A stretch of DNA of 64,000 nt, taken from positions 8,535 through 72,534 of the forward strand of contig JAHFMR010000004.1 of assembly GCA_023267755.1 (NCBI GenBank), read 5' to 3'. The notes beneath the pieces are model-generated. The model had not been told where the DNA came from. It saw only the letters and a list, made by a program, of their open reading frames with translations, and did no database searches. The position numbers and the translations under genes are program-made. This stretch comes from a bacterium (GTDB lineage: Bacteria; Patescibacteriota; Minisyncoccia; Phycocordibacterales; Phycocordibacteraceae). Shown here piece after piece: positions 5,605 through 24,769 of the stretch. Position 1 is the first letter of the stretch; every line of letters starts with the position of its first letter.

Positions 5605-7143
5605 TTAGGACGGCTTCACCACCCACTTCTGCTTGATGCCTGCGGGGAAGAATTCAGGATCACCTGATGGGCGGAATACGAGTTTGAAAAGCGGGCGTTC
5701 ATTCACGAACGTCGAGAGCTCGCGATACTCGGAGCTCCGCTCCTTGAAGGCGGCCTCGACCGCACGCGTTGCTTCCTTCTTGAAGATTTCAGACACCGAC
5801 TCGACTCCTCGCTTCTGCTCGACGTTTATTTCGAGATACTGATTTTCTTTATCATCATACTTAGTTACAATCTGGAACTTCCCGGTACAGAAACGCTGTA
5901 TCAAATCGCTCACCATCACGTCACGAAGGTACTCGGGATAGACCTGCAGACCGTAAAGCGTGGTGGCGAGGTCGGATCGCTCATACACGTAGACAAAGGG
6001 GAGCTCGTAGAGCGGCATATTAAGCTTCTTCGCCTCCTTTGCAAGGTTGATACCCGCTTCTGCAAAAATCGCCTTCAACTCGTCATAGGTGTACACACCA
6101 CCGCGATCACCCACTGCATAGCGGATAAGCGGCACGCCGCTGTAGCCGGTGAGAATGACCTCTCCGTCAGGTGCTTCGAACGAGACAAATGCCGGATTGT
6201 ACTGCGCCAGAGTCGGCGTCTTCCGCACATCGCCAAAGATACGGCCGAAGAGCTTTTTATTTTTCATCGCGAGCCGGCGCATAAGGATGGCGGTCGGCGT
6301 CTCGAACGCCATCGCGCCGATATCGGCGGTGCCATAGATGTTCAACGTATCGCGGTAGATATTCTTCATCCCGACCTTCTTTGCGAGATAGTCGCGGAAG
6401 CGCTCGGAGAATGCCTCCGCCGCGAAGAAGAGGCGCATATTAAGCTTCTTCAGATTAATCCCCTCAAACTCTGCTTCATCGAGGACGTCCTTCACGAACG
6501 GCGGGTAGCCGATGAGGATAGTCTGTTTGAATGACGGCGCGAGGTCGTGAAGCGCCTTAAGTATCTCTGCCTTGTTCACGCCCGCTGGGAGTATCGAGAC
6601 CGGGTATCCTCGTCGGCTCGCGATATCGAAGGCTCGATATGTGAGCGTCCCGCCTATCCACACGCCCATTCCGAAGCCCACAATAACGAGTGTCGGGCAG
6701 TCTGGTCCCGGCAACTGTGCTCCATTGCGCAAGAACAGCTCGACGAGCACCGAGTACTGTTCTTCCAAGTTCGAGGTGCGTTGGAAGTAGAAGGGCTTCC
6801 CAGTCGAGCCCGAGGTGGAGGAAAACACGGCCGGGCGACCGAGCGTACCGTCCCAACAGAGATCAGCAAAAGGATATTTCTTAAGATACGCTGCCTTGTT
6901 GGTTGTCGGCAGCTTCTCGAAGTCTTCACGTGTGCGGACGGTTTCCGGGTTGACACCGTGCTCCTTAAGAAAGGCTTTGTACGCGGGCACACGCTCCGCT
7001 GCGTCACGGAAGAGTGTGAGCGCGTTCTTCGTCCGCACGCGCAACCACGTATCTGAATCGCGGGTACAAACTCGATCGGCCATTCTCTGTACCGGTGCTG
7101 TCGGTAGTACAAGCGGGGCCTTCACGTTTGTCTTACTCGCCAT
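5605..7143 (-). CDS. PaaK-like adenylate-forming enzyme (phenylacetate-CoA ligase / coenzyme F390 synthetase family)
   Basis: SSTSGSTGKPFYF matches the PaaK-family AMP-binding loop; size 512 aa. Confidence 0.6.
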   Translation of the reverse strand: MASKTNVKAPLVLPTAPVQRMADRVCTRDSDTWLRVRTKNALTLFRDAAERVPAYKAFLKEHGVNPETVRTREDFEKLPTTNKAAYLKKYPFADLCWDGTLGRPAVFSSTSGSTGKPFYFQRTSNLEEQYSVLVELFLRNGAQLPGPDCPTLVIVGFGMGVWIGGTLTYRAFDIASRRGYPVSILPAGVNKAEILKALHDLAPSFKQTILIGYPPFVKDVLDEAEFEGINLKKLNMRLFFAAEAFSERFRDYLAKKVGMKNIYRDTLNIYGTADIGAMAFETPTAILMRRLAMKNKKLFGRIFGDVRKTPTLAQYNPAFVSFEAPDGEVILTGYSGVPLIRYAVGDRGGVYTYDELKAIFAEAGINLAKEAKKLNMPLYELPFVYVYERSDLATTLYGLQVYPEYLRDVMVSDLIQRFCTGKFQIVTKYDDKENQYLEINVEQKRGVESVSEIFKKEATRAVEAAFKERSSEYRELSTFVNERPLFKLVFRPSGDPEFFPAGIKQKWVVKPS

Positions 7144-7146
7144 AGG

Positions 7147-8211
7147 TTATGCGCGGCTGCCCGCAAAACGTTTCTTCCCTATCTGATCGGCAATCGCGTC
7201 GGGTGCGCAGCGATTCTTCTTTGCGGCAGTGAGAATATCGGTGACGGTCTTGCGTACCTGGGAGACGCGACGCTCAACACGGGCGCGGTCATATCCCTTA
7301 GCATCGAGCTCGTCGACGACATTAATCAATCCCCCTCCATTGGCAACGTAGTCAGGGATGTACACGATGCCGCGCTTCGCGAGGCGCGCACTGTCTCTGG
7401 GCGTCGCGAGCTGATTGTTCGCCGCACCACAGACAATCTTCACCTTGAGCTTCGCGATTGTCTTCTCGGAGAGATCCCCGCCGAGGGCGCAGAGTGAGAG
7501 AATATCCGCCGTTTGCGTCAAGATTGCTTCAGGCGAGACGCTGCGCATACTCGGAATCTTCTTTTGTACCGCGCGGAGCCGATCCTGATTCTTCTCTGCC
7601 CCGACAATTTGCGCTCCGGCCTTATGTAGGAGCATCGCCAAGTCAGAGCCGACATTACCCAATCCCTTAATCGCAACAGTTCGCCCTTTGAACGAATCAT
7701 TCCCAAAGACAGTCTTAAGCGCCGCTCGCATCGACTCGAAAACACTCAAGGCCGCCCAGTGCGCTGGGAGACCTCCTACCGCGGGACGTCCAATGATGCT
7801 TTCTGAATGTTTCGCGAGGATCTCGATATCACGCTTTGTGAGGCCTACGTCCTCCCCAGTAAAAAAATGCCCATCGAGAAGCGCGATCCGACGCGCATAC
7901 GCAGCAAAATATTTCTCATTCTTCAACTTCTCGGCCGCAGAAGCGTTCTTCGGCGCCATCAGCACTGCTTTGCCGCCGCCGTACGGCACCTTCGCGAGTG
8001 CACACTTATAAGTCATCGCACGTGAGAGGCGGAGTGCGTCGCGCAGCGCCTCCTCTTCAGAGGCGTAATGAGCAAATCGTGTCCCGCCGACCGCTGGTCC
8101 GGCATGTGTATTATGAATAGCTATAAATCCACGGAGGTTCGTGGATCGATCGTAGAGCCGGAGGACCATCTCGTGTCCGTCAAATTCCGGCAACTGTTCT
8201 ATCTCAGTCAC
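7147..8211 (-). CDS. Glu/Leu/Phe/Val-family amino-acid dehydrogenase (leucine/phenylalanine dehydrogenase-like)
   Basis: KCALAKVPYGGGKAV catalytic lysine/GGGK motif; C-terminal NAD-binding GLGNVG; 354 aa. Confidence 0.75.
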   Translation of the reverse strand: MTEIEQLPEFDGHEMVLRLYDRSTNLRGFIAIHNTHAGPAVGGTRFAHYASEEEALRDALRLSRAMTYKCALAKVPYGGGKAVLMAPKNASAAEKLKNEKYFAAYARRIALLDGHFFTGEDVGLTKRDIEILAKHSESIIGRPAVGGLPAHWAALSVFESMRAALKTVFGNDSFKGRTVAIKGLGNVGSDLAMLLHKAGAQIVGAEKNQDRLRAVQKKIPSMRSVSPEAILTQTADILSLCALGGDLSEKTIAKLKVKIVCGAANNQLATPRDSARLAKRGIVYIPDYVANGGGLINVVDELDAKGYDRARVERRVSQVRKTVTDILTAAKKNRCAPDAIADQIGKKRFAGSRA

Positions 8212-9618: not shown

Positions 9619-10122
9619 GTGGAAAAGTGGATTAGAAAATTACCCCGCTCGCGCGTGGACTATCCTTCGCAGAAACGCGACCAGCTGAAGTACTGGGTCT
9701 GGAAAGCGTACACTCCGCTTCACCCGCTTGTGCGCAATGCGTCATATCGCCTCGGCGTCGGGAGATTCTTATTGCGACGCGTGTTCCCAGAGATGAAACA
9801 GACCGGCCGACAGGATTTCCTCATCGGGACGCTTGACCCCGCGCATTCGGTACGCGATTTCGTCTCGTTCCTCATCGAACAAGGATTCGGAAATCACTTT
9901 GTCGCGTGGAAGGATTCTGACGAGCTTGTGAGTCTTCGGCGCACTGACGGCTTTCGACATCAATATCATATCCGCATCTTCAAAGACGGAGAGGTGCGCT
10001 GTCACTACGAGTTTACGCCGGAGTATCACCCTATTCGCCACCTTATACGCATCGGCTTTGAAGACCGTAACCAGGAGTTCAGAACGCTTATGCAAGACTG
10101 GCTCCTCCCGCTCACACGATGA
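9619..10122 (+). CDS. Hypothetical protein (start uncertain: GTG 9619 or ATG ~9793); stop overlaps the glycerate kinase start (ATGA)
   Basis: ORF track; translational coupling with the next gene; no recognisable domain. Confidence 0.3.
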   Translation: MEKWIRKLPRSRVDYPSQKRDQLKYWVWKAYTPLHPLVRNASYRLGVGRFLLRRVFPEMKQTGRQDFLIGTLDPAHSVRDFVSFLIEQGFGNHFVAWKDSDELVSLRRTDGFRHQYHIRIFKDGEVRCHYEFTPEYHPIRHLIRIGFEDRNQEFRTLMQDWLLPLTR

Positions 10123-11432
10123 TCCACCGCATACAAAACCTCGAGGAGCTTGCTACTGGTAACGCCAAGCGTCTCGACGCACTCGCTATCGCCGAAGCTG
10201 GCTATGCGGCTATCAACACCGGCGAAGCATTGCGGCGCAAGATGTGGGTGGAGACGGATGGGATTCATATCGGCGGGAAGATATACCCCACCGCCGAGCG
10301 GCAAGTATATTTCGTCGGCATCGGCAAGTGCGCCTTTGACGCCGCAGAAGCTATTGAGGATATCTTCGGCGATCTCCTCATTGCTGGCATTGCCTTCGGT
10401 GTGGGCTCCCAAGAAAAAAGCCAACTCAATAAGATACAACCCTATAGCGGGACACACCCGCTCCCGAGCGAAGCGAATGTGGTGGCAACAAGGCACGTTA
10501 TGGAGTTCCTTTCGGATCGCACGGAAAACGACCTCGTCATTATGCTCATCTCGGGTGGCGGTTCGACACTGCTCTGCTCCCCCTCCGGAGTGATGACCTG
10601 TCTCGATGAGAGCACCCTCTTCAGCGAACTCACCGCACGTGGCGCAACAATTCAAGACATCAACACCGTACGCAAACACACCTCGCTCGCGCGCGGCGGT
10701 GCGCTCGCAGAAGCTGCCTACCCAGCCGAAGTTCTCGCTCTCATCGCTTCTGACGTCCCTGGGAATGACATCCCCTCTATTGCTTCTGGCCCGACCGTTC
10801 TCGATTCCTCGACCATCGCCGACGCGGAAATAATCCTCGCGAAGTACAGTGTCGCCGCCGCAGGCATCACGCTCATTGAGACGCCGAAGGACGCAAGATA
10901 TTTTGAGCGTGTCACAAACACGCTCTTCATCACCAGCCAGGATGCTCTCCTTGCGATGCAGGAAGAGGCGACACGACGCGGTTATCAGGCCACTATCGTG
11001 GCCGACTGCTTCACTGGTGAGGCACGCGAGGTGGGGCGCTCTGTTGTAGAGAAGTTGCATACAGTGAACACTGGCTCTGCTCTGCTCTACGCGGGTGAAA
11101 GCACTGTTATGATTAACGGTGACGGCAAGGGTTCCTCGACTCCGCTCGGGGCAGGCGGGCGCAATCAGGAGATGTCGCTCGCCGCGCTTAGCGACATTCG
11201 CGAGGGAGAGCTTCTTCTCCCCTTTGCCTCCGACGGGCGCGATAACACCGACCACGCGGGCGCGATTGCCGATAGTACGACGCTCGCTCACGCGCACGAA
11301 CAAAACCTCGCCCCCGAAGATTATCTCGCCACCCATCGCTCCTACGACTTCTTTACAACAACGCGCGATGCCCTCTTAACGGGGTATACTGGATCTAATG
11401 TATCTGACCTTATTATCGCCCTTAAGAAATAA
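10119..11432 (+). CDS. Glycerate 2-kinase (MOFRL family; hydroxypyruvate reductase-associated GckA/TtuD type)
   Basis: DLVIMLISGGGSTLLCSP and C-terminal MOFRL-like region; 437 aa. Confidence 0.7.
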   Translation: MIHRIQNLEELATGNAKRLDALAIAEAGYAAINTGEALRRKMWVETDGIHIGGKIYPTAERQVYFVGIGKCAFDAAEAIEDIFGDLLIAGIAFGVGSQEKSQLNKIQPYSGTHPLPSEANVVATRHVMEFLSDRTENDLVIMLISGGGSTLLCSPSGVMTCLDESTLFSELTARGATIQDINTVRKHTSLARGGALAEAAYPAEVLALIASDVPGNDIPSIASGPTVLDSSTIADAEIILAKYSVAAAGITLIETPKDARYFERVTNTLFITSQDALLAMQEEATRRGYQATIVADCFTGEAREVGRSVVEKLHTVNTGSALLYAGESTVMINGDGKGSSTPLGAGGRNQEMSLAALSDIREGELLLPFASDGRDNTDHAGAIADSTTLAHAHEQNLAPEDYLATHRSYDFFTTTRDALLTGYTGSNVSDLIIALKK

Positions 11433-11921: not shown

Positions 11922-14345
11922 ATGAAAAACGCCCACATACTCTGGATGAAAGACACCAGTATGGACGATGTCGCTCAGGTCGGCGGCAAGAACGCCTCGC
12001 TCGGCGAGCTTATCCGTTCGATGGTTCCCCGGGGAGTGCGCGTGCCTGAGGGGTTCTGTGTCACTGCCGAGGCGTACTATTATTTTCTCAAAGAGACTGG
12101 GCTTGATGTGTTTATCGAGGAAACGCTTCGCGGATTGGACACGCGCAATCTGAAAGAACTCTCTCGCTGCGGCAAGCTCATACGCGATAAGATGCGCGCC
12201 ACGCCGCTCCCCACCCGTCTCGAGCGCTCTATCATCGACGCGTACACGCAGATGGAGAAGCAGTACGGAAAGAAGACTGACGTCGCGGTGCGCTCCTCGG
12301 CGACCGCTGAGGATCTTCCGGGCGCCTCGTTTGCCGGCGAACAGGAGACTTATTTGAATATTCGCGGAGCTAAGGACGTTGTTCGCGCCACGGTCTGGAC
12401 GATGGCCTCCCTCTTCACCGATCGCGCCATCTCCTATCGCGCTGACAGAGGATTCGACCATATGCGAGTCGCGCTCTCGGTGGGGGTACAGAAGATGGTC
12501 CGCTCAGACAAAGGTGCGTCCGGGGTGATGTTCACTGTGGACACCGAGAGTGGCTTCCGCGATATCGTCGTCGTGAACGCCACCTACGGGCTTGGCGAGA
12601 TGATTGTACAGGGCCACGTCACTCCAGACGAGTACCTCGTGAGCAAATCGCGCATCGGCAAGGTAAAGACACCCATCATCTCCAAGAAGATTGGTAAGAA
12701 CACCCGGAAGATGATCTACGATACTGGCAAGGCGGCGGTCGAGCAGACCAAAATAGTTGCGACGCCAGTCGCCGATACCAAACGCTTCGTCCTCACCGAC
12801 GATGAAATAGTCACGATGGCGACCTGGGGAAAAATTGTTGAGGAGCATTACAGCGAGCGAGCTAAGAAGTGGACACCGATGGATATGGAGTGGGCCAAGG
12901 ACGGTATCTCGGGTGAACTCTTTATTGTGCAGGCACGCCCCGAGACAGTACAGGCAGGGCGCGACTTCACCACGCTTGTCGAATATAAAGTGACCGGCCA
13001 AGGCAAGGAGCTCGTACGCGGTATCTCGGTGGGCTCGAAGGTCGCGGTGGGCAAGGTGCACGTGATTATGAACCCGAAACAGATTAGAGAGTTCAAGAAG
13101 GGCGAAGTGCTCGTCACAGCGATGACCGATCCCGACTGGGAGCCGATTATGAAGATGGCGAGTGCTATTGTCACCGACAAGGGCGGTCGCACGAGCCACG
13201 CCGCTATCGTCTCACGCGAGCTCGGCCTCCCCGCTATCGTGGGTACCGAGAATGCGACGAAGGCGCTTAAGACCGGCACACTGATTACGGTCGACACGAC
13301 CGGTAGCGCCGGCGTCGTCACGCTCGGTAAAGCAAAGAAGATTGAGATGCGCGAGCACTCACTCGGTGCCCTGCCCTCCACCAAGACCAAGATTATGGTC
13401 AACATCGCTTCGCCGGATATCGCGTTCGAGAATTCCTTCTTGCCGGTACAGGGCGTGGGGCTCGCGCGCGAGGAATTCATCATCGCAAGCGAGATCGGGG
13501 TGCACCCGCTCGCCATCCTCAATCTTAAGAAGCAGTCGCCGCGTGTGAAGAAGGCTATTCTCGAGCGAAGCGCTGGCTGGGATAATCCGGTGGACTTCTA
13601 CGTCGACAATCTCGCGTACGGCATCGCCAAGATCGGTGCCGCCTTCGCCCCGCGACCAGTCATCGTCCGCTTCTCCGATTTCAAGACCAACGAGTACGCA
13701 ACACTGCTTGGCGGTGAGGCCTACGAACCCAAAGAAGAGAACCCGATGCTCGGCTGGCGCGGCGCCTCTCGCTACTATGACCCGAAGTTTAAAGATGCAT
13801 TCGCGCTCGAGTGTAAAGCGCTCGTGAAGGTCCGCACCGATATGGGACTCACCAACGTGGTCCCGATGATCCCCTTCTGTCGCACACCGCACGAGGGCGA
13901 ACAGGTATTGAAGATTATGGCCGAGCACGGCCTTGTCGCCAAATCACTCTCCAAGGGAAACAATAAAACCACGCCGGTCTACGTGATGTGCGAGATACCG
14001 AGCAACATCCTCTTAGCTGAAGAGTTCCTCGACCTCTTCGACGGAATGTCGATAGGCAGCAACGATCTCACCCAGCTCACACTCGGTCTCGATCGTGACT
14101 CCGGCATCGTGACACATATTAGTAATGAGAACGATGAAGCCGTCCGCGCGCTCGTGAGCCAGATTATCCGCAAGTGTACGGCGCGTGGAAAATATATCGG
14201 CATCTGCGGACAAGGCCCCTCCGACCTGCCCGATTTCGCTGAATTTCTCGTGAAGGAGGGTATCGAGAGTATGTCGCTGAACCCGGACTCGGTCGTGAAG
14301 ACGCTCGAGCACATCGCCCAAATAGAGGAGAGGCTCGATCGCTAA
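11922..14345 (+). CDS. ppsA: Phosphoenolpyruvate synthase (pyruvate, water dikinase)
   Basis: N-terminal WMKDTSMDDVAQVGGKNASLGE and PEP-utilising/mobile His domains; 807 aa. Confidence 0.9.
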   Translation: MKNAHILWMKDTSMDDVAQVGGKNASLGELIRSMVPRGVRVPEGFCVTAEAYYYFLKETGLDVFIEETLRGLDTRNLKELSRCGKLIRDKMRATPLPTRLERSIIDAYTQMEKQYGKKTDVAVRSSATAEDLPGASFAGEQETYLNIRGAKDVVRATVWTMASLFTDRAISYRADRGFDHMRVALSVGVQKMVRSDKGASGVMFTVDTESGFRDIVVVNATYGLGEMIVQGHVTPDEYLVSKSRIGKVKTPIISKKIGKNTRKMIYDTGKAAVEQTKIVATPVADTKRFVLTDDEIVTMATWGKIVEEHYSERAKKWTPMDMEWAKDGISGELFIVQARPETVQAGRDFTTLVEYKVTGQGKELVRGISVGSKVAVGKVHVIMNPKQIREFKKGEVLVTAMTDPDWEPIMKMASAIVTDKGGRTSHAAIVSRELGLPAIVGTENATKALKTGTLITVDTTGSAGVVTLGKAKKIEMREHSLGALPSTKTKIMVNIASPDIAFENSFLPVQGVGLAREEFIIASEIGVHPLAILNLKKQSPRVKKAILERSAGWDNPVDFYVDNLAYGIAKIGAAFAPRPVIVRFSDFKTNEYATLLGGEAYEPKEENPMLGWRGASRYYDPKFKDAFALECKALVKVRTDMGLTNVVPMIPFCRTPHEGEQVLKIMAEHGLVAKSLSKGNNKTTPVYVMCEIPSNILLAEEFLDLFDGMSIGSNDLTQLTLGLDRDSGIVTHISNENDEAVRALVSQIIRKCTARGKYIGICGQGPSDLPDFAEFLVKEGIESMSLNPDSVVKTLEHIAQIEERLDR

Positions 14346-14346
14346 T

Positions 14347-15552
14347 ATGCGAATCGACGCTCTCACTGCCCGATCAATCCCGGATACGCGTGGCCGTCCG
14401 ACTATCGAAGTCACGCTTCAAGGTTCGACCTTGAAGGCCACTGCAAGCGTCCCCTCGGGTAAGTCCACCGGCTCGCATGAAGCGTTCGAGCTGCGCGACG
14501 AGGATGGCGGCGTGCAGACGGCAGTCGCTCATGCAAACGGAGAGATTGCACAAACAATCGTTGGACGACAATTCGACACGCTCGACGAGCTGGACACGCT
14601 CCTCATCGAGCTCGACGGCACACCGAATAAGTCACGCCTCGGAGCCAACGCTATCCTCGCTGTCTCTATCGCCGCACAACGTCTCGCGGCACAGCTCGAA
14701 GGCATCCCGCTCTGGAGAGCGATTGCAACCCGCGCGGGTACGACTCCGTCTGCACCACGCCTCTATGTGAACGTGATGAATGGCGGTGTGCACGCTGACT
14801 TCCGTCTCCCCTTCCAGGAGTACATCCTCGTCGTCGAGGGGGCGACGAGCGAAGCACTCCCTATCGCCCGCGAAGTATTCGCGAAGCTCGGTGAGAAGCT
14901 CGGTAACGCCCCGATGGGTGACGAGGGCGGTTACGCGCCGACCTTCGCCACGCTCGAAGAGCCGTTTGACCTGCTCGCTCCACTTGTCGCGGAGCATTCG
15001 CACACTTCTATCGCTATCGACGCCGCCGCAAGCGAATTTTATAAAGATGGAGTCTACACTCTTCTCAGCAAAGCATATTCTCCCGACGAACTCACAACGG
15101 TTTACCGTGAGCTCACCGAACGCTTCCCTATCCATAGCATAGAAGACCCTTTTTCTGAAGATGCCGCGAGAGATTTCACTCGTCTCACTGCCGCCATCGG
15201 CAACCCCTCGACTTCGCTCGGGGCAGGCAAAGTACTTATCGTTGGCGACGATCTCACCGTCACCAATCCGTCGCGCATCGCCTCTGCAGCGAATACTAAA
15301 GAGATAAACGCTGTCCTCATCAAGCCCAATCAGATTGGCTCGGTGAAAGAAGCAATTGAGGCGGTGCGGGCTACCTATGCCGCCGGCTTTGTCGCTATCG
15401 CCTCACATCGCTCCGGCGAGACCGACGACACCTTCATCGCCGACTTTGCCTACGGCATCGGCGCACACGGCATCAAGGCCGGCGGCCTCGGCCAGAAGGA
15501 ACGCCTGGAGAAATATGAGCGCCTGCTTGAGATAGAACAAGAAGCTCGTTAA
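14347..15552 (+). CDS. eno: Enolase
   Basis: SGKSTGSHEAFELRD and IKPNQIGSVKEAIEAV motifs. Confidence 0.9.
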   Translation: MRIDALTARSIPDTRGRPTIEVTLQGSTLKATASVPSGKSTGSHEAFELRDEDGGVQTAVAHANGEIAQTIVGRQFDTLDELDTLLIELDGTPNKSRLGANAILAVSIAAQRLAAQLEGIPLWRAIATRAGTTPSAPRLYVNVMNGGVHADFRLPFQEYILVVEGATSEALPIAREVFAKLGEKLGNAPMGDEGGYAPTFATLEEPFDLLAPLVAEHSHTSIAIDAAASEFYKDGVYTLLSKAYSPDELTTVYRELTERFPIHSIEDPFSEDAARDFTRLTAAIGNPSTSLGAGKVLIVGDDLTVTNPSRIASAANTKEINAVLIKPNQIGSVKEAIEAVRATYAAGFVAIASHRSGETDDTFIADFAYGIGAHGIKAGGLGQKERLEKYERLLEIEQEAR

Positions 15553-15629
15553 TTTGCATATACGGCGATACCGTTGTATCGTCCCTTCGGAAAGCAGCAC
15601 TTCATAATCCCCCTACGGAGGAACACACC

Positions 15630-17093
15630 GTGAGATATATCAGCACACGCGGGCTCGCGCCTGCAGTACCCTTCTGCGACGTCCTGCTCGCCGGGCTCGC
15701 GCCCGATGGCGGGCTCTACGTGCCAGAAACATATCCGAAGATGACCACGAAGGAACTTGCCGCTCTGCGATATGCCTCATATTCTGAAGTGGCATTCAAG
15801 GTCCTGTCCAGGTTCATCGACGACATCCCGCCTGCGGATCTTCTGGCTATTTGCGATAAGACGTACACCGCGGAGAACTTCAAACATTCCCGCAATGGCG
15901 CCGATCCCAAACAGATTGTCCCGCTTACCTGGCTCTGGGAGACAACGTCCCGTCTCGGAAATCACGGCCTAGGCATCCTTGAGCTCTCAAACGGCCCGAC
16001 ACTCGCCTTCAAGGATCTCGGCCTGCAACTGCTCGGCAACTTGTTCGAGTACGTGCTGGCGAAGCGCGACGAGACGCTCAACGTCCTCGGCGCGACCTCC
16101 GGCGATACTGGCTCGGCCGCAGAGTACGCGCTGCGCGGGAAGAAAGGCATCAATGTCTTTATGCTCTCACCAGAGGGCAAGATGTCGCCCTTCCAGCGAG
16201 CGCAGATGTACAGTCTGCTGGACTCCAACATCTACAACATCGCCGTCAGAGGAATGTTCGACGATGCACAGGACGTGGTGAAGGCCGTCTCAAACGACGC
16301 CGAGTTCAAGGCCGAGTTCAAGATCGGCGCGGTCAACTCGATTAATCTGGCACGCATCATCGCTCAGGTGGTCTATTACGTGTGGGGATACCTGCGCGCG
16401 ACTGATCGAGAAAATAGCTGCGAAAAGCCCATCGACTTCGCTGTCCCGACCGGCAACTTCGGCAATATCTGTGCCGGCCACGTGGCGCGCGAGATGGGGA
16501 TCCCGATCAGGATGCTGATTCTCGCCACCAACGAGAACGACGTGCTCCACGAGTTCTTCCGCACGGGTGTCTATCGGCCGCGCAAGGCGGCTGATGTGAG
16601 CATCACTTCGAGCCCATCGATGGATATCTCGAAGGCATCAAACTTCGAGCGGTTCATCTACGACCTCGTCGCGAGCGATAGCAAGCGGGTCCGGGAATTA
16701 TTCTCGAGCAGTGACGGCTTCAATCTCTCGGGAGATGCGCACTTCAGGTCGTTGCAGAAGCGCTACCCGATGCCAAGTCACGCGAGCACGCACCTGAACC
16801 GGCTCTCGATGATCCGGACGACCTGGGAGAAATACTGCATCTTGATCGATCCGCACACAGCCGACGCAATGGCCGCTGCGAGCTATCACTTCCGGCCCAA
16901 CGAGGAGGTATCGATGATTGTTCTCGAGACCGCCCAGCCGTGCAAGTTCGACGAAACAATCCTTGAAGCAACCAGAGTTGCTCCCAAAATACCGCAAGGA
17001 CTTGTTGGCATCGAGGATCTCCCTCAGCGGGTCGTCGTGATGAACCCTGATCCGGGGGAAGTAAAGCAGTTCATTCGAGACCATTGCGCGTAA
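15630..17093 (+). CDS. thrC: Threonine synthase (long form), GTG start with GGAGG SD 9 nt upstream
   Basis: MRYISTRG...GLAPDGGLYVPETYP N-terminus; PLP-fold. Confidence 0.85.
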   Translation: MRYISTRGLAPAVPFCDVLLAGLAPDGGLYVPETYPKMTTKELAALRYASYSEVAFKVLSRFIDDIPPADLLAICDKTYTAENFKHSRNGADPKQIVPLTWLWETTSRLGNHGLGILELSNGPTLAFKDLGLQLLGNLFEYVLAKRDETLNVLGATSGDTGSAAEYALRGKKGINVFMLSPEGKMSPFQRAQMYSLLDSNIYNIAVRGMFDDAQDVVKAVSNDAEFKAEFKIGAVNSINLARIIAQVVYYVWGYLRATDRENSCEKPIDFAVPTGNFGNICAGHVAREMGIPIRMLILATNENDVLHEFFRTGVYRPRKAADVSITSSPSMDISKASNFERFIYDLVASDSKRVRELFSSSDGFNLSGDAHFRSLQKRYPMPSHASTHLNRLSMIRTTWEKYCILIDPHTADAMAAASYHFRPNEEVSMIVLETAQPCKFDETILEATRVAPKIPQGLVGIEDLPQRVVVMNPDPGEVKQFIRDHCA

Positions 17094-18791: not shown

Positions 18792-20306
18792 ATGAACATT
18801 ATCGACAATTTCCTCAATCGCATCACGATGTACCGTCTCGTGCTGTACTACCTCCTCGTACTGCTCGGCGCAGCCGGTGTCTTCGGTTTATTCGGCATCC
18901 TCCCCTACAGTCCCGCCGACCTGCTCTTCTCGACGCTCATCATCCTCGTCTCCTGCTGGGCAAGTAACACACTCTTTTCGCGAATCTTCGGGGCGGTACC
19001 GAACGTCGAGTCGGTCTACATCACCGGCTTCATCCTCGCTCTCATCATCACGCCAGTTGGCCCGACGAGTGTTACTGGCATCGGCTTCCTTATTTTCGCC
19101 TCAGTGTGGGCGATGGCATCCAAATATATTTTCGCCCTCGGGAAGAAACACATCTTCAATCCCGCGGCGTTCGGCGTGGTGCTCTCAGCACTCGTCATCG
19201 GCCAGTCAGCTACCTGGTGGGTCGCCGGCAACTATGCCCTGCTCCCTTTCGTCCTCCTTGGCGGCCTACTCATCACGCGCAAGATTCACCGTTTTGATCT
19301 TGTCCTCTCGTTCTCAATCGTCTCGCTCGCAACCATCGCCCTGACCACTTCTGGCACCAGCCCGTTCACTGCACTACTTCAGACCTTCTCGCACTCTCCC
19401 TTCTTTTTCCTCGCACTCGTGATGCTTACCGAGCCGCTCACGATGCCGCCCATTCGCCTCTTGCGGTTTATCTACGGCGCGCTGGTCGGCCTTCTCTTCG
19501 CCCCAAATATCCACCTCGGCTCGTTCTACTTCTCTCCCGAACTCGCGCTTCTTATCGGCAACGTGTTCGCGTACGCAGTAAGCCCCAAGGGGCGCTTTAT
19601 GCTCACCCTCCTCGAGAAGAAGGAAATAGCAGCAGGCACCTACGAGCTCATCTTCTCACCTGACCGGCCGCTCGCCTTCCGTCCTGGACAGTACCTAGAA
19701 TGGACGCTCGCACATAGTCCGAGTGACGCGCGCGGCAACCGCCGCTACTTCACTATTGCGTCATCGCCAACCGAGAGCACAGTGCGTCTGGGCGTCCGCG
19801 TCTACGAACCCGAGAGCACCTTTAAGCGTGCGCTAAAGGATATGAAGATTGGTGATGTTATCTCTGTCTCGAGTCTCGCTGGCGACTTCACGCTGCCGAA
19901 GAAATCGCGGAAGAAGCTCGTCTTCATCGCCGGAGGCATCGGCGTTACCCCATTCCGCAGTATGGTGCAATATCTCGTAGACACTAAGGACACTCGCCCG
20001 GCGGTGCTCCTCTATTCAAACAAGATGGCGAGTGAGATTGCCTACCGAGAAGTGTTCGATCGCGCCGGACAAGAGATTGGGCTCCAAACACTCTATGCGC
20101 TTACCGACGAGCCGAGTGCTGTCCCGGGAACCTATGCCGGCAGACTAGATGCCACGATTATTGCCAAGGAGATTCCCGATTATAAAAACTGCACCTTCTA
20201 TATCTCCGGCCCACACGGGATGGTCGAAGCCTTTAAGAGCACACTTATCGGGATGGGCGTCTCGCGTTTCAATATTAAAACCGACTACTTCCCCGGCTTC
20301 GCATAG
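18792..20306 (+). CDS. Integral membrane protein fused to a C-terminal FNR-like FAD/NAD(P)-binding reductase domain
   Basis: ~260 aa polytopic N-terminus; RRYFTIASSP (RxYS FAD motif) and LVFIAGGIGVTPF (NAD(P) motif). Confidence 0.65.
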   Translation: MNIIDNFLNRITMYRLVLYYLLVLLGAAGVFGLFGILPYSPADLLFSTLIILVSCWASNTLFSRIFGAVPNVESVYITGFILALIITPVGPTSVTGIGFLIFASVWAMASKYIFALGKKHIFNPAAFGVVLSALVIGQSATWWVAGNYALLPFVLLGGLLITRKIHRFDLVLSFSIVSLATIALTTSGTSPFTALLQTFSHSPFFFLALVMLTEPLTMPPIRLLRFIYGALVGLLFAPNIHLGSFYFSPELALLIGNVFAYAVSPKGRFMLTLLEKKEIAAGTYELIFSPDRPLAFRPGQYLEWTLAHSPSDARGNRRYFTIASSPTESTVRLGVRVYEPESTFKRALKDMKIGDVISVSSLAGDFTLPKKSRKKLVFIAGGIGVTPFRSMVQYLVDTKDTRPAVLLYSNKMASEIAYREVFDRAGQEIGLQTLYALTDEPSAVPGTYAGRLDATIIAKEIPDYKNCTFYISGPHGMVEAFKSTLIGMGVSRFNIKTDYFPGFA

Positions 20307-20366: not shown

Positions 20367-20579
20367 TTACGCGACCTTGCTGACGTTGAGAGCGTTCGGG
20401 CCCTTCGGGCTCTCACCAATCTCAAACGAGACCTTGTCTCCCTCCTGGAGCTCGTCGAACGAAATGTTCTGGAGCTCGTTGGTGTGGAAGAAAAGATCCT
20501 TAGAACCATCCGGTTCTCCGGCGACCTTGATGAAGCCGAAGCCCTTATCGTTCTTCTTGATTACTGTTCCTTCTTTCAT
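20367..20579 (-). CDS. cspA: Cold-shock protein (CspA family)
   Basis: GTVIKKNDKGFGFIKV...DLFFH cold-shock domain RNP motifs; 70 aa. Confidence 0.85.
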   Translation of the reverse strand: MKEGTVIKKNDKGFGFIKVAGEPDGSKDLFFHTNELQNISFDELQEGDKVSFEIGESPKGPNALNVSKVA

Positions 20580-20715: not shown

Positions 20716-21156
20716 TTAATTCCCTGACATCTCGCTATTCCCTGCGCTTGACCCATCACCCGTCCCTGCCGGTGCTCCACAAGCAATCGCTGCGGTGCGA
20801 TATGTCCTCCACGCCGCGTCACGAGAGGTCTGCCACGTGTTATGAGCGCTTCTCGTCGAAGTCCTGAAGGTGTTCCACACCGTTCTTGTTGCTGCCGAGA
20901 CAGCTCGGGTCGTCGTCGTGGCATAGGCCTGCTGAAGCGCAGTTGCGCGGGCGCTATATGCTGTAGTGATCGCGCCATTATAGATTGTCACGGCGGTTCC
21001 GATTGCAGTCTCGCGCGTGTTCACCGCGGTGCCGACGCAGGTAATCTTCGTCGCCATAGTTGCTGCTGACGTTGTGGTCGCAGTATCGGCAAAAGCCGGC
21101 ACAGCGGCCATCAGCCCTGCGGCCACGACTGCTCCTGCGATTATCTTTTTATACAT
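20716..21156 (-). CDS. Secreted Ala/Thr/Arg-rich hypothetical protein with signal peptide
   Basis: MYKKIIAGAVVAAGLMAAVPAFA signal peptide; low-complexity repeats. Confidence 0.4.
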   Translation of the reverse strand: MYKKIIAGAVVAAGLMAAVPAFADTATTTSAATMATKITCVGTAVNTRETAIGTAVTIYNGAITTAYSARATALQQAYATTTTRAVSAATRTVWNTFRTSTRSAHNTWQTSRDAAWRTYRTAAIACGAPAGTGDGSSAGNSEMSGN

Positions 21157-21250: not shown

Positions 21251-22030
21251 CTAGCAGGCGATGTTCTGATCAATAGCAGTCGAGCTCGCCTCGTACTGCA
21301 CAATCCAGATTGGACTTCCTGTGATGAAGCTCTTGCCGGTCACGCACGCATTAATCGCGCCTACCTGGCTCTTGACCCCCACTGGTAGCCAGACCGGGAT
21401 GAGCACATCTTGTCCTGCTATCTTCTGCACGGGGATGAAACCGCTTCCGGCAATCGTCCGCCACATACGCGGCATCGAGTAGATGCCGACGCGGAGCCCC
21501 TTTGTATTCAGATAATCAATCGCGCCTTGAATTGTCGCGGCGTTTACCGCCGTATCCTTCGACCAGCTATTGGCCTCTTCGATATCGAGCCACCAGAGCG
21601 CCGACTGCACCCCCTTCTCTAGCGCGTAGCGGTAGGAGTGTTCTGCCGCCTGATAGCCGTAGTTGTAGCCCTGACACGCGGTGGGCTCTGCGCCCGCCTT
21701 CGTACCACTGCACGCCTTCGGACTGCCCACGTGCCCTTCTACCGTGCTCCCATAGGGCGCATTCAAATTCATATACACGGTCGCGGCGGTGTGCGAGGCA
21801 AACTTCGTCCACGCATAGCCGGCTGAGAGCCGTTTATTATCGACGAACGCCTTCCCTCCGGTGACGCCCACAATCGCGAAGCCAAACGACTCCGCGGGGA
21901 AATAACGCGTGCTGAAGGTTACGTCAAAGCCGAGATTGCTCGGCACATACGGACTCCCCACCGCCGCCACAGCGAGTGCGGGCAATGCCGTAAAAAGAAC
22001 TCCGAGTGCCGCGAAAATCACTTTCCTCAT
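21251..22030 (-). CDS. Secreted glycoside hydrolase family 25-like muramidase
   Basis: Signal peptide; GFDVT, FAIVGVTGGKAFVD, WWLDIEE and PIWIVQYE resemble the GH25 motifs GIDVS/FAIIKATEG/WLDVE/WIAQY. Confidence 0.5.
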   Translation of the reverse strand: MRKVIFAALGVLFTALPALAVAAVGSPYVPSNLGFDVTFSTRYFPAESFGFAIVGVTGGKAFVDNKRLSAGYAWTKFASHTAATVYMNLNAPYGSTVEGHVGSPKACSGTKAGAEPTACQGYNYGYQAAEHSYRYALEKGVQSALWWLDIEEANSWSKDTAVNAATIQGAIDYLNTKGLRVGIYSMPRMWRTIAGSGFIPVQKIAGQDVLIPVWLPVGVKSQVGAINACVTGKSFITGSPIWIVQYEASSTAIDQNIAC

Positions 22031-22045
22031 TACTCAAGTATACCT

Positions 22046-22265
22046 CTCAAGCAAAGCAAAAGCCGCCCTAGTGGGCGGCTTTTGCTTTGCGTGTTGCCCG
22101 AGGCGGTACTGTACCTGTCACTACAGGCAAACCAAAGGTTCTTTCAGCATCGTTCTCCCCTCTTTAGCGATGGGGGCCGGTATGGGTCTGGTTTGAGATG
22201 TTCAAAGAATTTTCAATGGGTTTGGCCAGATGAGAAGACGGAGCGGTACAGTACCAAGAAATCAA
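22046..22265. repeat. Intergenic repeat copy A (begins with perfect GC-rich hairpin 22051..22090; shares 60-nt block with copy B)
   Basis: Shared block ccaaaggttctttc[ag]gcatcgttct.ccctc..tagcgatgggg.ccggtatgg.tc and GGTACTGTACC palindromes. Confidence 0.6.
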
Positions 22266-22367
22266 CATGCCATATTTTTAGTATCAAAATTAAAACAACG
22301 AAACTTAATACCCATATCGCAACGTCCGGCGCCCAACTTGATGCCTTACCTAGTAAGCTTCGTTTAC

Positions 22368-22688
22368 TCAACTCAACTCAACTTCACCCGTTAATTTGCC
22401 CAGGGTATCCTTATTTCTCATTGCGGTTTTCTTGAGATCATCATTATAAAGATAAAGAGGTGTTGGAATTAAGAGTAAAAGTGCACTGACCAAAAAACGA
22501 ACAAGATTATCTAGCGGGATGAGATTTGAATTGAATGTGGCTATAACAAGAAGTGTCGCTGCTAAACCGGCCATCAATGGCAAAAGTGCCATTCTCGAAC
22601 GAACAGTCGACTGAAGCATATCGAGATGCTCCTTGACGACTATCCACTGATGCTCCTTCGGTAGACGGTCAAAATATTTCTTGTCCAT
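22368..22688 (-). CDS. Small 2-TM membrane protein, low-GC (foreign) gene
   Basis: ORF track; AT-rich codon usage distinct from the window; translationally coupled to upstream ORF. Confidence 0.45.
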   Translation of the reverse strand: MDKKYFDRLPKEHQWIVVKEHLDMLQSTVRSRMALLPLMAGLAATLLVIATFNSNLIPLDNLVRFLVSALLLLIPTPLYLYNDDLKKTAMRNKDTLGKLTGEVELS

Positions 22689-22942
22689 TAGACTTCTTTG
22701 TTCACTTCTTCATTCTTTGGGTACCCCCATTTGCCACGAACGATATACCAAAATAGCCCCTCTACTGCGCCCATAGAGAAAACAATGACTACATTTGTTA
22801 TTACAAAAGACCCGAAATCAAACGAATAATAAAGAGCTGTATTTGCAATCAGTAGAAATAAACCAAAAAAGAAAACATATAGAGATTTAACTACTCTATA
22901 CCACCTCTTATCTTCATATTCCGCGATTACCTTGTTTTTCAT
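22688..22942 (-). CDS. Small 2-TM membrane protein, low-GC (foreign) gene
   Basis: ORF track; AT-rich; start/stop overlap with 22368..22688. Confidence 0.45.
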   Translation of the reverse strand: MKNKVIAEYEDKRWYRVVKSLYVFFFGLFLLIANTALYYSFDFGSFVITNVVIVFSMGAVEGLFWYIVRGKWGYPKNEEVNKEV

Positions 22943-23035
22943 TTTGTTATTTATATTCTACCAAGAGTTCCTTTTGTCCACCACACTGCTTCCAACATTG
23001 TTGGATTTGATGCTGGCTAGGGTCTCTAGCGATGC

Positions 23036-23290
23036 GACGCAAAAGCCGCCCTTTCAGGGCGCCTTTTGCTAACGTGATGCCGAGCGGTACTGTACTGCCC
23101 TTGATGGGGGACGGTACTGGTTCCTGGCGTCACAACCGTGTTGCCCGTGTCGGTACTGTACCCGCCACAATAAGCAAACCAAAGGTTCTTTCGGCATCGT
23201 TCTTCCCTCCCTAGCGATGGGGACCGGTATGGATCGGCTTTCAATGTTTTCAAGGATTTTTGATCAATTTCGAGCTCGAGAAACGGGAGC
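23036..23290. repeat. Intergenic repeat copy B (hairpin 23038..23068; composite of the copy A block and the copy C block)
   Basis: Contains gatggggga.ggtactggttcctggcgtcacaaccgtgttgc (as in C) followed by the A-type block. Confidence 0.6.
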
Positions 23291-23350
23291 CGGTATCGTA
23301 CTGAGATTTTATTATGTTAATCTCACAAATATCGTGATCATCCGAAAACT

Positions 23351-24259
23351 ATGACCGACTTCGAGACCCGGCTTACTGCGTACATCCACAAGATTCTCGC
23401 CCACGAAGGCGATGACTGGAGCGTTTCATCGCCACCTCAGGGTATGAGCAGCAGCGTCTTCTTCCTGACATTGGGAGGCATGGAATATGCGGTGAAGTAC
23501 GGTGTGGATGCGGCTAAAGATGTACCCGCCATCGCACTCATCCGTGATCACGGCGCACGCGTCCCGGTGCCCGAGGTCGTGGAAAGTTTTGTGTTCGAAG
23601 AAGTGCCGATAGTGGTGATGAAGCGGATCGTGTTTCCCCTACTCGAGAGCGTACCAGTCGCGGATCTCCCGGCGTATCTTCCGAGCATGCTAGATCTCAT
23701 GGAGGAACTCCACACGATTACCAACCCAACACCAAAGATAGTGTCTGCGCCGGGTGAGCTTGCTTCGTGGAAGGAATATCTGCTCGCGCAATTCGACGGG
23801 CGCACAATAGACTGGGAAGAAATACTCGGGCGCAAAGCCTTGGATCGCGCGCTCGTTGCGGATGCGCTCGACCGATTCCGCGCGCTCCTCGCCGCAAGCG
23901 ATCTCGAGCTTTCGTCTTATACGCTTCTCCATACGGACTTCAACCAGCGCAATCTCTTCGTCGATCTGGCCACAAAGACTATCAGTGGGATTGTTGACTG
24001 GGAGGACGCGGTCTTTGGCGATTCCATCTATGATTTTGCGCGGATACGCATGTTCCTCTGGCATTTCGACCTGCCTGAAATGGCCATCTCCGTGTACTAC
24101 AACCGGACGCGTTATAACGATACGGAGAAGCAGCGCGAATGGTTGTATTTAACGGCGCGAGTCATCCAATACCTTGCCTGGTATTCGGAGGAAGATACGA
24201 CATTCAATACCTCCCGAATCGCGTTGCACCAGAACTATCTGCGGGCGATCCGGTGGTGA
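23351..24259 (+). CDS. Aminoglycoside-phosphotransferase/choline-kinase-like protein kinase fold enzyme (APH family)
   Basis: LLHTDFNQRNLFVD (HxDxxxxN catalytic loop) and GIVDWEDAVFGD (IDWE/DFG-like) motifs. Confidence 0.65.
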   Translation: MTDFETRLTAYIHKILAHEGDDWSVSSPPQGMSSSVFFLTLGGMEYAVKYGVDAAKDVPAIALIRDHGARVPVPEVVESFVFEEVPIVVMKRIVFPLLESVPVADLPAYLPSMLDLMEELHTITNPTPKIVSAPGELASWKEYLLAQFDGRTIDWEEILGRKALDRALVADALDRFRALLAASDLELSSYTLLHTDFNQRNLFVDLATKTISGIVDWEDAVFGDSIYDFARIRMFLWHFDLPEMAISVYYNRTRYNDTEKQREWLYLTARVIQYLAWYSEEDTTFNTSRIALHQNYLRAIRW

Positions 24260-24290
24260 TAATCTGTGGCCGCCTCGGATCGAGGTGGTA

Positions 24291-24448
24291 GCAAAAGCCG
24301 CCCATAAGGGCGGCTTTTGCGTACGTGATGCACTACAAGAGTACTTCTCGTTTTCTAACTCGCTTCGCTCCTAAGAAAACAATGTCGCCGGGCGGTACTG
24401 TGCTGACCCTGATGGGGGAAGGTACTGGTTCCTGGCGTCACAACCGTG
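24291..24448. repeat. Repeat copy C (terminator hairpin 24291..24320 plus the 60-nt block shared with B), immediately 3' of the intron-containing tRNA
   Basis: gcaaaagccgccc-ataa-gggcggcttttgc; block ctgatgggggaaggtactggttcctggcgtcacaaccgtgttgc. Confidence 0.6.
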
Positions 24449-24769
24449 TTGCGGGGGCCGGAATCGAACCGGCGTCTGGAGGTTCTTCTGTACCTACTGT
24501 TTCCAGCAGGAATGGACTATCCCATAATCCTATAAGGATTCTCCCATTATAGTCTCTGAACCTTTCCTCCGCCTCAGGCGGAAGACTTGGCTGCTGATTG
24601 CCGAATCTTCTCGTTTTTCACGCATTCGCGCCCACCCTTTCGAGTCACGTTGTAGCATGAGAAGCTCTCACGGTATTCCAGCAATTTAGAGAGTTTTTCC
24701 ACTACCCGTTACCGGATAGGGTCACGTTATTCACATGAGCCTCCCGAGGTACCTCTCCTCTACCCCGCT
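24449..24769 (-). tRNA. Initiator-like tRNA-Met (anticodon CAT) interrupted by a group I intron; exons 24769..24735 and 24484..24449
   Basis: Spliced: AGCGGGG-UA-GAGG-AGAGGUA-CCUC-G-GGAGG-CUCAU|AA-CCUCC-AGAC-GCCGG-UUCGAUU-CCGGC-CCCCGCA-A; 3' half identical to E. coli tRNA-fMet (CCGGCCCCCGCAA), 1:72 mismatch. Confidence 0.75.
24485..24734 (-). ncRNA. Group I self-splicing intron (~250 nt, no ORF) in the tRNA anticodon loop after U36
   Basis: Exon ends in U, intron ends in G; IGS GUGA pairs with UCAU; core-like CUAAAUUGCUGG...CGAAAGGGUGGG (J3/4-P4) and CAGAGACUAUAAUGGGAG (J6/7-P7) motifs. Confidence 0.65.

Follow-up and report, generated by a model that had tools for sequence, protein, structure and literature searches.

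Next to an intron-containing tRNA-Met gene in the patescibacterial contig JAHFMR010000004.1, three copies (A, B and C) of intergenic repeats probably mark two decayed integrative mini-elements without a recombinase, arrayed in tandem at the 3´ end of a tRNA-Met that is plausibly of the initiator type; on our reading of the sequence the repeats are attachment-site junctions. The window is the whole 64 kb stretch of DNA that was analysed, all positions follow its numbering, and tRNA sense is its minus strand. We call the block common to A and B X and the block common to B and C Y, and refer to comparison loci as L001-L139. The original prediction had proposed serial integrations at the tRNA 3´ end with att-like repeats and no integrase, and the comparisons bear this out: cargo genes unrelated to one another are bracketed by X and Y beside this tRNA in many genomes, strains differ at this place, and intact relatives carry a large serine recombinase (LSR). 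The repeats do not, on the other hand, behave as plain duplicates of the tRNA flank left by integration, but rather as arms borne by the elements (P = X, P´ = Y), which each of A, B and C joins in its own way. In tRNA sense the features are as follows.

24449..24769, minus strand: tRNA-Met(CAT) with a group I intron (24493-24746) after the anticodon; its 3´ end is the proposed integration target (B half-site).
24387..24452, minus strand: Y_C, the putative P´ arm abutting the tRNA, 92% identical to Y_B.
24322..24386, minus strand: 65-nt insertion in Y_C, between the Y body and an ATCAC tail, with no counterpart in Y_B in the alignment.
24291-24320: hairpin C, terminator of the Y module, a perfect 13-bp stem GCAAAAGCCGCCC/GGGCGGCTTTTGC with an A-tract and a T-tract.
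23351..24259, plus strand: gene for an APH-family kinase (Pfam APH, 1e-19; 55% GC), cargo of mini-element 1, antisense to the tRNA.
23137..23306, minus strand: X_B, putative right end (P arm) of mini-element 1, 77% identical to X_A.
23079..23144, minus strand: Y_B, putative P´ arm with its core at 23112-23144 (0 mismatches); together with X_B it forms an X/Y junction.
23039-23069: hairpin B, terminator of the Y module, with one stem mismatch.
22368..22942, minus strand: two small hydrophobic open reading frames (ORFs) in tRNA sense, of 84 aa (22688-22942, minus strand) and 106 aa (22368-22688, minus strand), cargo of mini-element 2, 38% GC.
22090..22259, minus strand: X_A, putative right end (P arm) of mini-element 2.
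22056-22086: hairpin A, a perfect 13-bp stem GCAAAAGCCGCCC/GGGCGGCTTTTGC within a longer stem (22048-22093).

The tRNA gene is genuine and does contain an intron, as had been proposed. The Rfam model Intron_gpI matches 24493-24746 on the minus strand with 83.9 bits, and the exons are identical or near-identical to the intron-less tRNA-Met(CAT) genes of relatives. Read from the sequence, this tRNA has an A1·A72 mismatch where the other tRNA-Met of the window has a G1-C72 pair, which makes an initiator identity plausible.

Two different repeated blocks are present, as originally described, with extents and identities that depart from those first given, 60 nt for either block and some 85-90% for that of A and B. 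X (22090-22259 versus 23137-23306) is longer and less alike, 77% over 173 nt (E = 4e-31) with an ungapped portion of 124 nt at 81%; Y (23079-23142 versus 24387-24450) is 92% identical over 64 nt, or 84% over 87 nt when extended into the tRNA 3´ end. Copy C does lie directly 3´ of the tRNA and B does repeat the tRNA flank: Y_C begins within the last 6 nt of tRNA-Met, and its 33-bp core (24420-24452, one mismatch) opens with the GCAACA (24447-24452) that is the tRNA end. X_B closes, in tRNA sense, with GGGTACAGTACCGACACGGGCAACAC, which is similar to a tRNA 3´ end, and by our reading of the sequences the X tails of the window are only ~66% alike to the tRNA 3´ end; the last ~25 nt of X would imitate the T-arm and acceptor end. 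Both X and Y hold repeated (C/A)AGTACCG...CA.CA units of the same tRNA-3´-end-like character, which may be decayed half-sites; L031 and L035 are without the stretch between two of them. The palindrome GGTACWGTACC, thought to recur throughout, is indeed over-represented, with three perfect sites and one with a single mismatch where 0.35 are expected (four sites were reached in 0 of 100 shuffles), and is restricted to A and B. Similarly, the markedly low GC content noted between the copies applies to the A-B interval (39% versus 55% for the window) and not to the kinase interval, which at 55% is at genome level.

The order of parts in tRNA sense would be that of two units. In element 1, the tRNA is followed by Y_C, the 65-nt insertion, terminator C, the antisense kinase gene and X_B; in element 2, Y_B is followed by terminator B, the 84- and 106-aa ORFs and X_A. 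Beyond X_A would come the displaced trailer-terminator of the tRNA (hairpin A) and then a gene for a 259-aa protein. C may thus be described as an attL-type junction of tRNA and Y (B/P´), B as a complete, attP-like internal junction of X and Y (P/P´), and A as an attR-type junction in which X is fused to the displaced trailer and terminator of the tRNA (P/B´). The empty site would consist of the tRNA end ...CCCCCGCAACA joined directly to CGCAAAGCAAAAGCCGCCC of hairpin A.

The comparison loci L001, L004, L005, L007, L008 and others were chosen through homologues of the adjoining 190-aa protein (p190), which assigns the window to Candidatus Kaiserbacteria (Patescibacteria) and is 72% identical in the nearest other species. 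Homologue comparison shows that the p190-anchored loci all read ligA-gatC-gatA-p190-tRNA-Met. When the flanks of the tRNA are compared in this way, as the original prediction had suggested, the segment 3´ of tRNA-Met turns out to be hypervariable, with insertions exactly at the X and Y modules; it is different in every p190-anchored genome, while the flanks remain syntenic. It holds a cation ATPase and a cold-shock protein in L001, phosphatase, HIT and kinase genes in L004, the same genes as in L004 plus an LSR and a pair resembling a cyclic-oligonucleotide-based anti-phage signalling system (CBASS; a weak DncV-like match and Cap15) in L005, and a 622-aa resolvase-family gene with a Prim-Pol gene in L007. 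In the window, synteny with relatives resumes at a cold-shock gene (20367-20579, minus strand) and a 504-aa gene.

Y adjoins tRNA-Met in other species as well and recurs kilobases downstream at 80-89% identity (the flanking protein being ~70% identical); L001, L004 and 23 genome copies have it directly 3´ of the tRNA. A 20-mer from Y, searched against 185,579 species genomes, retrieved 49 stretches, 46 of them real, from ~40 species-level genomes, nearly all of Kaiserbacteria/Paceibacterota (Patescibacteria). They contain 59 Y cores, all co-oriented and 751-3086 nt apart, many contigs having several copies. The invariant 33-bp core is GCAACACGGTTGTGACGCCAGGAACCAGTACCG (most copies listed match it fully, and the rest differ at no more than 3 positions), and the invariant part of Y can be written (C)CCCGCAACAC/GGTTGTGACGCCAGGAACCAGTACCG; the remainder is variable and always closes with a terminator hairpin. 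A true tRNA 3´ end abuts 23 of the cores, an X-type end 9, a partial tRNA 3´ copy 9 and other sequence 18. Next to the same tRNA, the cores separate unrelated cargo genes every 0.75-3 kb, and the cassette genes of the arrays occur in both orientations with terminators of their own.

Such short, palindrome-rich intergenic repeats with hairpins could call to mind a generic dispersed element similar to repetitive extragenic palindromes or miniature inverted-repeat transposable elements, or else a tRNA flank that was duplicated locally as a segment, independently of mobile elements. The distribution of the copies makes this barely conceivable. No further copy of the hairpin, X or Y blocks lies elsewhere in the 64 kb window, the complete 993 kb Kaiserbacteria chromosome (L027) has one exact core only, and where flanks are visible the Y copies lie just downstream of gatCA-p190-tRNA-Met. 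In many genomes, moreover, X and Y enclose cargo genes that are unrelated, and insertions at these modules set strains apart. The random dispersal that the original prediction had named as evidence against integration is not what is seen in the window or in L027.

X has at least 10 full homologues elsewhere, each ending ...GGGTACAGTACCGnCnCGGGCAACA(C) and each adjoined by a Y core or by a trailer plus terminator. X/Y junctions like that of B are found in L022, L040, L049, L050 (twice), L057 (twice) and L058. The ends of the element are best seen in strains that differ by an insertion. L004 and L005/L024 belong to one species: over 5 kb L005 and L024 are 100% identical, and in shared parts L004 is 99.8% identical to L024 and 100% to L040. 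L005/L024 and L040 carry a segment with the CBASS-like pair and the LSR that is missing from L004. At the left junction of this segment the core is kept and the right part of Y is new, and at its right junction (L040 4729) an X-type end is followed by the core, the original right part of the L004 Y and the next L004 gene. The stretches L024 and L040 (8 kb each) do not join and yield no length for the L005/L024 element. L007 and L008 diverge immediately after GCAACA. In relatives, breakpoints of presence and absence coincide exactly with the att modules, both in L004 versus L005/L024/L040 and in L007 versus L008. A whole element of 11.8 kb is seen in L059, with the junction of an intron-containing tRNA and Y at 7723, the LSR at 9992-11329 and X at 19344-19508; this X ends CGGGCAACA and is followed by AGTACG and an unrelated terminator. 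L139 and L029 have the same junction of X with a trailer-terminator, and tRNA-like ends joined to the same type of trailer occur nearby. From the junctions of L004/L005/L040, L059, L029/L139 and L007/L008, we infer that the element has Y as its left arm (P´) and X as its right arm (P), with exchange at or next to GCAACA. A crossover at GGTT or in the Y spacer was also considered; it is ruled out by L004/L005/L040 and the junctions of X with the trailer, which place the exchange at or before GCAACA(C).

The enzyme would be an LSR of a clade that targets tRNA 3´ ends. The LSR of L005 (444 aa) has the domains Resolvase (PF00239), Recombinase (PF07508) and Zn_ribbon_recom (PF13408), and close homologues lie inside the arrays of L027, L032, L036, L037 and L039, always antisense to the tRNA; with L059 and L061, these make up the LSR-bearing relatives (L024 and L005 are one genome). 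In a set of 150 ORFs located downstream of first cores, the LSR is both the top Pfam family and the top PHROG (6 members). More than 480 relatives were found in metagenomes (loci L059-L138 among them). In 32 of the 60 loci examined, a tRNA gene convergent with the LSR lies 0.1-6 kb beyond the LSR stop; it is tRNA-Met for LSRs of 63-95% identity and a Ser, His, Arg, Lys, Gly or Trp tRNA for more distant ones. Members of the clade probably target specific tRNA genes at their 3´ ends. For LSRs beside tRNA-Met, of 95, 80, 73, 65 and 63% identity, the sequence that follows GCAACA becomes progressively different, as expected if Y is the site of that enzyme, and near the metagenomic relatives the Y core is found only at 95% LSR identity or above. 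At X/Y junctions, GGTAC and GTACC stand ~50 bp apart around CAACAC/GG.

The same arrays could be classical tRNA islands of tyrosine integrases, in which the repeats are the identity segment, tRNA 3´ end plus flank, duplicated at each integration and the serine recombinases are passengers. Identical cores of at least 33 bp at successive junctions fit this well, as do the true partial tRNA 3´ copies that precede some Y cores (L004, L024, L042, L056), and islands of this type are well known to form tandem arrays at tRNA genes (PMC4383910). We nevertheless consider it improbable. The recurrent Pfam and PHROG families listed for the 150 array ORFs include no tyrosine recombinase, nor any other recombinase or integrase besides the LSR that tops both; the LSR clade consistently adjoins tRNA genes, and the tRNA-proximal arm diverges together with the LSR.

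The hairpins that accompany the repeats were described as perfect, which is correct for A and C (13 bp, 94% alike); B has a mismatch in the stem. None is expected in shuffles of the window (0.00). As RNA, A is predicted to fold with -37, B with -21 to -24 and C with -29 kcal/mol, equally on both strands, and we regard the hairpins as bidirectional intrinsic terminators that would insulate each unit; hairpin C would terminate both the tRNA and the kinase transcripts. Other genomes keep the unit of Y plus terminator, and the stem there shows compensatory changes. Hairpin A differs in that its full stem measures 18-21 bp (GCAAAGCAAAAGCCGCCC) and begins directly after the CAACAC that closes X_A. 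It is more similar to the displaced trailers of L139 and L029 than to the 13-bp Y terminators, and its architecture, an X end and then a long stem with GCAAA..GAAAGC.., is shared with L029, L059 and L139. Hairpin A is thus probably the original trailer-terminator of the tRNA, displaced by 2.4 kb.

Terminators at the end of conserved blocks also invite the idea that X, Y or both are genes or cis-elements of a structured non-coding RNA (ncRNA) family, such as a leader with a terminator hairpin at its end or a small RNA processed out of the tRNA trailer. An unannotated family of this kind was the alternative offered in the original prediction. Each copy does close with a strong terminator in tRNA sense, the body of Y allows an imperfect dyad to be drawn (GUGACGCC..GGCAUCAC), and one apparent compensatory change distinguishes A from B (CCCC/GGGG versus TCCC/GGGA). 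However, scanning the window against Rfam, and the region again with permissive E-value limits, gave only the group I intron, tRNAs and sub-threshold hits driven by the terminators, and no family for X or Y. The consensus fold of 10 X copies reaches -12 kcal/mol with a covariation term of -0.54, and its sole long-range helix pairs two self-complementary GGTACAGTACC motifs. In 13 copies of Y, compensatory changes occur at 0 of 15 body pairs, as against 9 pairs in the terminator stem. The near-invariance of the 33-bp core is what is expected of a recognition site for a protein, and Y diverges in step with the recombinase. A CATCG/CGATG helix, which with the CCCC/GGGG pairing would form a pseudoknot in X, looked promising in A versus B and was rejected since it is not kept in other copies (L029, L031, L057). 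An ncRNA family is thus very unlikely; the lack of an Rfam family and of covariation outside the terminator stems points to X and Y being recombination modules that act at the level of DNA, with terminators attached. X was also considered as coding, since copy A has an RBS-like AAGAGGGGAG followed by ATG and a 9-codon ORF; the frame is lost in other copies, and no reading frame is conserved across the copies of X.

Returning to the array of integrated elements, the internal X/Y junction would have arisen when the second element entered at the tRNA-proximal site, either by the recombinase acting on the hybrid site of tRNA and Y or by homologous recombination between Y copies. The elements of the window may have lost their recombinase or never had one, and would be movable only with a recombinase supplied in trans. 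Several points weigh against this interpretation. The two elements encode the kinase and the two small ORFs only; there is no recombinase in the island and no LSR or other serine-recombinase gene was found in the 64 kb window, such that both elements may be inert relics. The flanking protein of the nearest genome is 72% identical, and the polymorphism and the ends are known from relatives alone. Canonical LSRs recombine attP with attB only, need ~50 bp and do not require long arms; the enzyme alone therefore does not explain the conservation of ~170 nt of X or the origin of an internal P/P´ junction. The proposed 50-bp attP shows weak dyad symmetry (~11 of 25 positions, read by eye), and the crossover point is placed by comparisons of junctions alone. 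Only the commonest families of the array ORFs are visible, and a rare tyrosine integrase may be present among them. Finally, hairpins A and C, the latter of Y type, are almost the same in sequence, and A could be an X/Y junction that has lost the Y body; the deletion could then lie between the similar CAACAC and CATCAC motifs.

Tandem arrays of genomic islands at tRNA and tmRNA genes are of a well-known kind, described as Islander/TIGER-type islands (PMC4383910, PMC9580842); the present one would be an instance in Patescibacteria with an LSR clade that targets tRNA 3´ ends, and we found no paper describing such an array in this group. As in those islands, the tRNA 3´ end is targeted, newer insertions push older ones away, junctions resemble the tRNA 3´ end and the cargo is strain-specific. 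Unlike them, the array is associated with an LSR instead of a tyrosine integrase, only the last ~6 nt of the tRNA are overlapped, and the elements of the window measure 1.0-1.3 kb and have no integrase. In SCCmec and psi-SCC, the Enterococcus cassette chromosome and streptococcal cis-mobilizable elements (CIMEs), LSRs insert at the 3´ end of one housekeeping gene and give rise to tandem units with repeated integration-site sequences between them; many units are without a recombinase and rely on that of a neighbour. Here, by contrast, the target is a tRNA and not rlmH, the hosts, recombinase lineage and sites are unrelated, and mobilization in trans is putative. The tycheposons of Prochlorococcus also share a streamlined host, tRNA sites, partial tRNA copies between elements and integrase-less remnants (bioRxiv 10.1101/2020.12.28.424599). 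A minority of them use LSRs, and most use tyrosine recombinases together with replication modules (bioRxiv 10.1101/2020.12.28.424599). They differ from the present array, in which X and Y are long, conserved junction modules not derived from tRNA, and no relationship in sequence or protein was seen. Integron arrays, including clusters of attC sites lacking integron-integrases (CALINs), resemble the present array in having units of 1-3 genes (0.75-3 kb), a conserved recombination module in between and a fixed platform. The X/Y sequences, however, show no attC architecture (R´´/L´´-L´/R´, RYYYAAC...GTTRRRY), no IntI-type tyrosine recombinase is among the listed families, and the genes occur in both orientations with their own terminators.

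One speculative possibility, which we consider rather doubtful, is that the X/Y junctions are complete, functional attP-like sites and that the locus after tRNA-Met in Kaiserbacteria is an integron-like platform for gene capture driven by a serine recombinase. Recombinase-less cassettes of 1-3 kb would then be excised, swapped between species and re-inserted by the LSR of a sibling acting in trans, and the ultra-small genomes of Patescibacteria would have gained a site reserved for accessory and defence genes. Two genomes with p190 proteins of 54% identity share a 187-aa cassette gene at 90% identity, a pattern that hints at exchange of single cassettes. The kinase was likewise considered as a precise mobile cassette; its homologue in L016 (62% identical) lies inside the array there and has no X or Y flanks.

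No new kind of biological system is revealed by these observations. They do provide a rule for annotation in Kaiserbacteria/Paceibacterota, namely that the stretch after gatCA-p190-tRNA-Met is an integration hotspot, with units that can be delimited by the 33-bp core and the X and Y arms, and they explain a puzzling cluster of repeats. In addition, they draw attention to an LSR clade that is abundant in Patescibacteria and for which natural attP/attB pairs can be read from genomes. This may help to trace how genes move among uncultivated organisms with reduced genomes, and may supply new site-specific integrases.

The cargo of the window offers few clues to function. The kinase is only distantly related to aminoglycoside phosphotransferases, and PADLOC and NCBIfam returned nothing for the cargo beyond this distant APH similarity; the two small ORFs have no match in Pfam, PADLOC or NCBIfam. 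Between hairpin A and the cold-shock gene lie the gene for the 259-aa protein (21251-22030) and one for a 146-aa protein (20716-21156), neither of which belongs to a Pfam, NCBIfam or PADLOC family. Homologues of the former were found in two of the fetched loci (L055, L028) and of the latter in none, and both genes may be accessory too.

Some features of other arrays at this tRNA deserve mention. In L005, positions 13213-16050 take in the CBASS-like pair and, directly next to it, the LSR (14716-16050); the pair is absent from the sister strain. One of its genes has a precomputed assignment to PF26305 (CD_NTase_C), with only a sub-threshold DncV-like match in our own scan (E 0.0086), and the other encodes a Cap15 effector (1.3e-24). 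A LOOT RNA (RF03000, 66 bits) is found at L007 15830-15956, within the resolvase/Prim-Pol element. A conserved leader is seen in three genomes (L022 ~6960-7060, L058 ~7200-7300, L008 12440-12530), in L022 and L058 upstream of the 187-aa cassette gene. It is made up of a promoter-like TTGCTCT..TATAAT followed by a hairpin (CCUCACCACCUCUGUCCUCGGGCAGGGGUGG) and a U-tract, and possibly represents an attenuator or an RNA motif not yet annotated.

The 65-nt insertion in Y_C has an inverted repeat of its own (TTTTCTTAGGAGCGAAGCGAGTTAGAAAA), and related insertions occupy the same position of Y in L055 and L056. A second family of right arms consists of an inverted and a direct tRNA-3´-end-like copy, GGGGACCGGAATCGAAC...AGTTCGATTCCGACCCCCGCAACAC (L004 10750-10820; L016, L024, L032, L042, L056), and similar inverted T-arm fragments follow the attR-type junctions of L029, L059 and L139. 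In L004 (8383-8414), L005, L007 and L008 (10596-10650), a mini tRNA-like sequence, AGCGGGGTAGAGGAGAGTTGCGCCCCGCAAC, is found ~60 nt upstream of the real tRNA and corresponds to the tRNA 5´ end joined to the 3´ strand of the acceptor.

The tRNA-Met itself varies in its insertions. It is intron-less in L001, L004, L005, L007 and L008, and the group I intron found after CAT in the window is present also in L029 and L046. No Rfam match was obtained in the tRNA region of L059, though its 5´ exon lies ~285 nt upstream. This genome (7438-7729) is one of at least nine, together with L041, L023, L045, L017, L034, L051, L027 and L037, that have a different insertion of ~220 nt, without an Rfam match at gathering score, between GGCT and CATAA of the tRNA.

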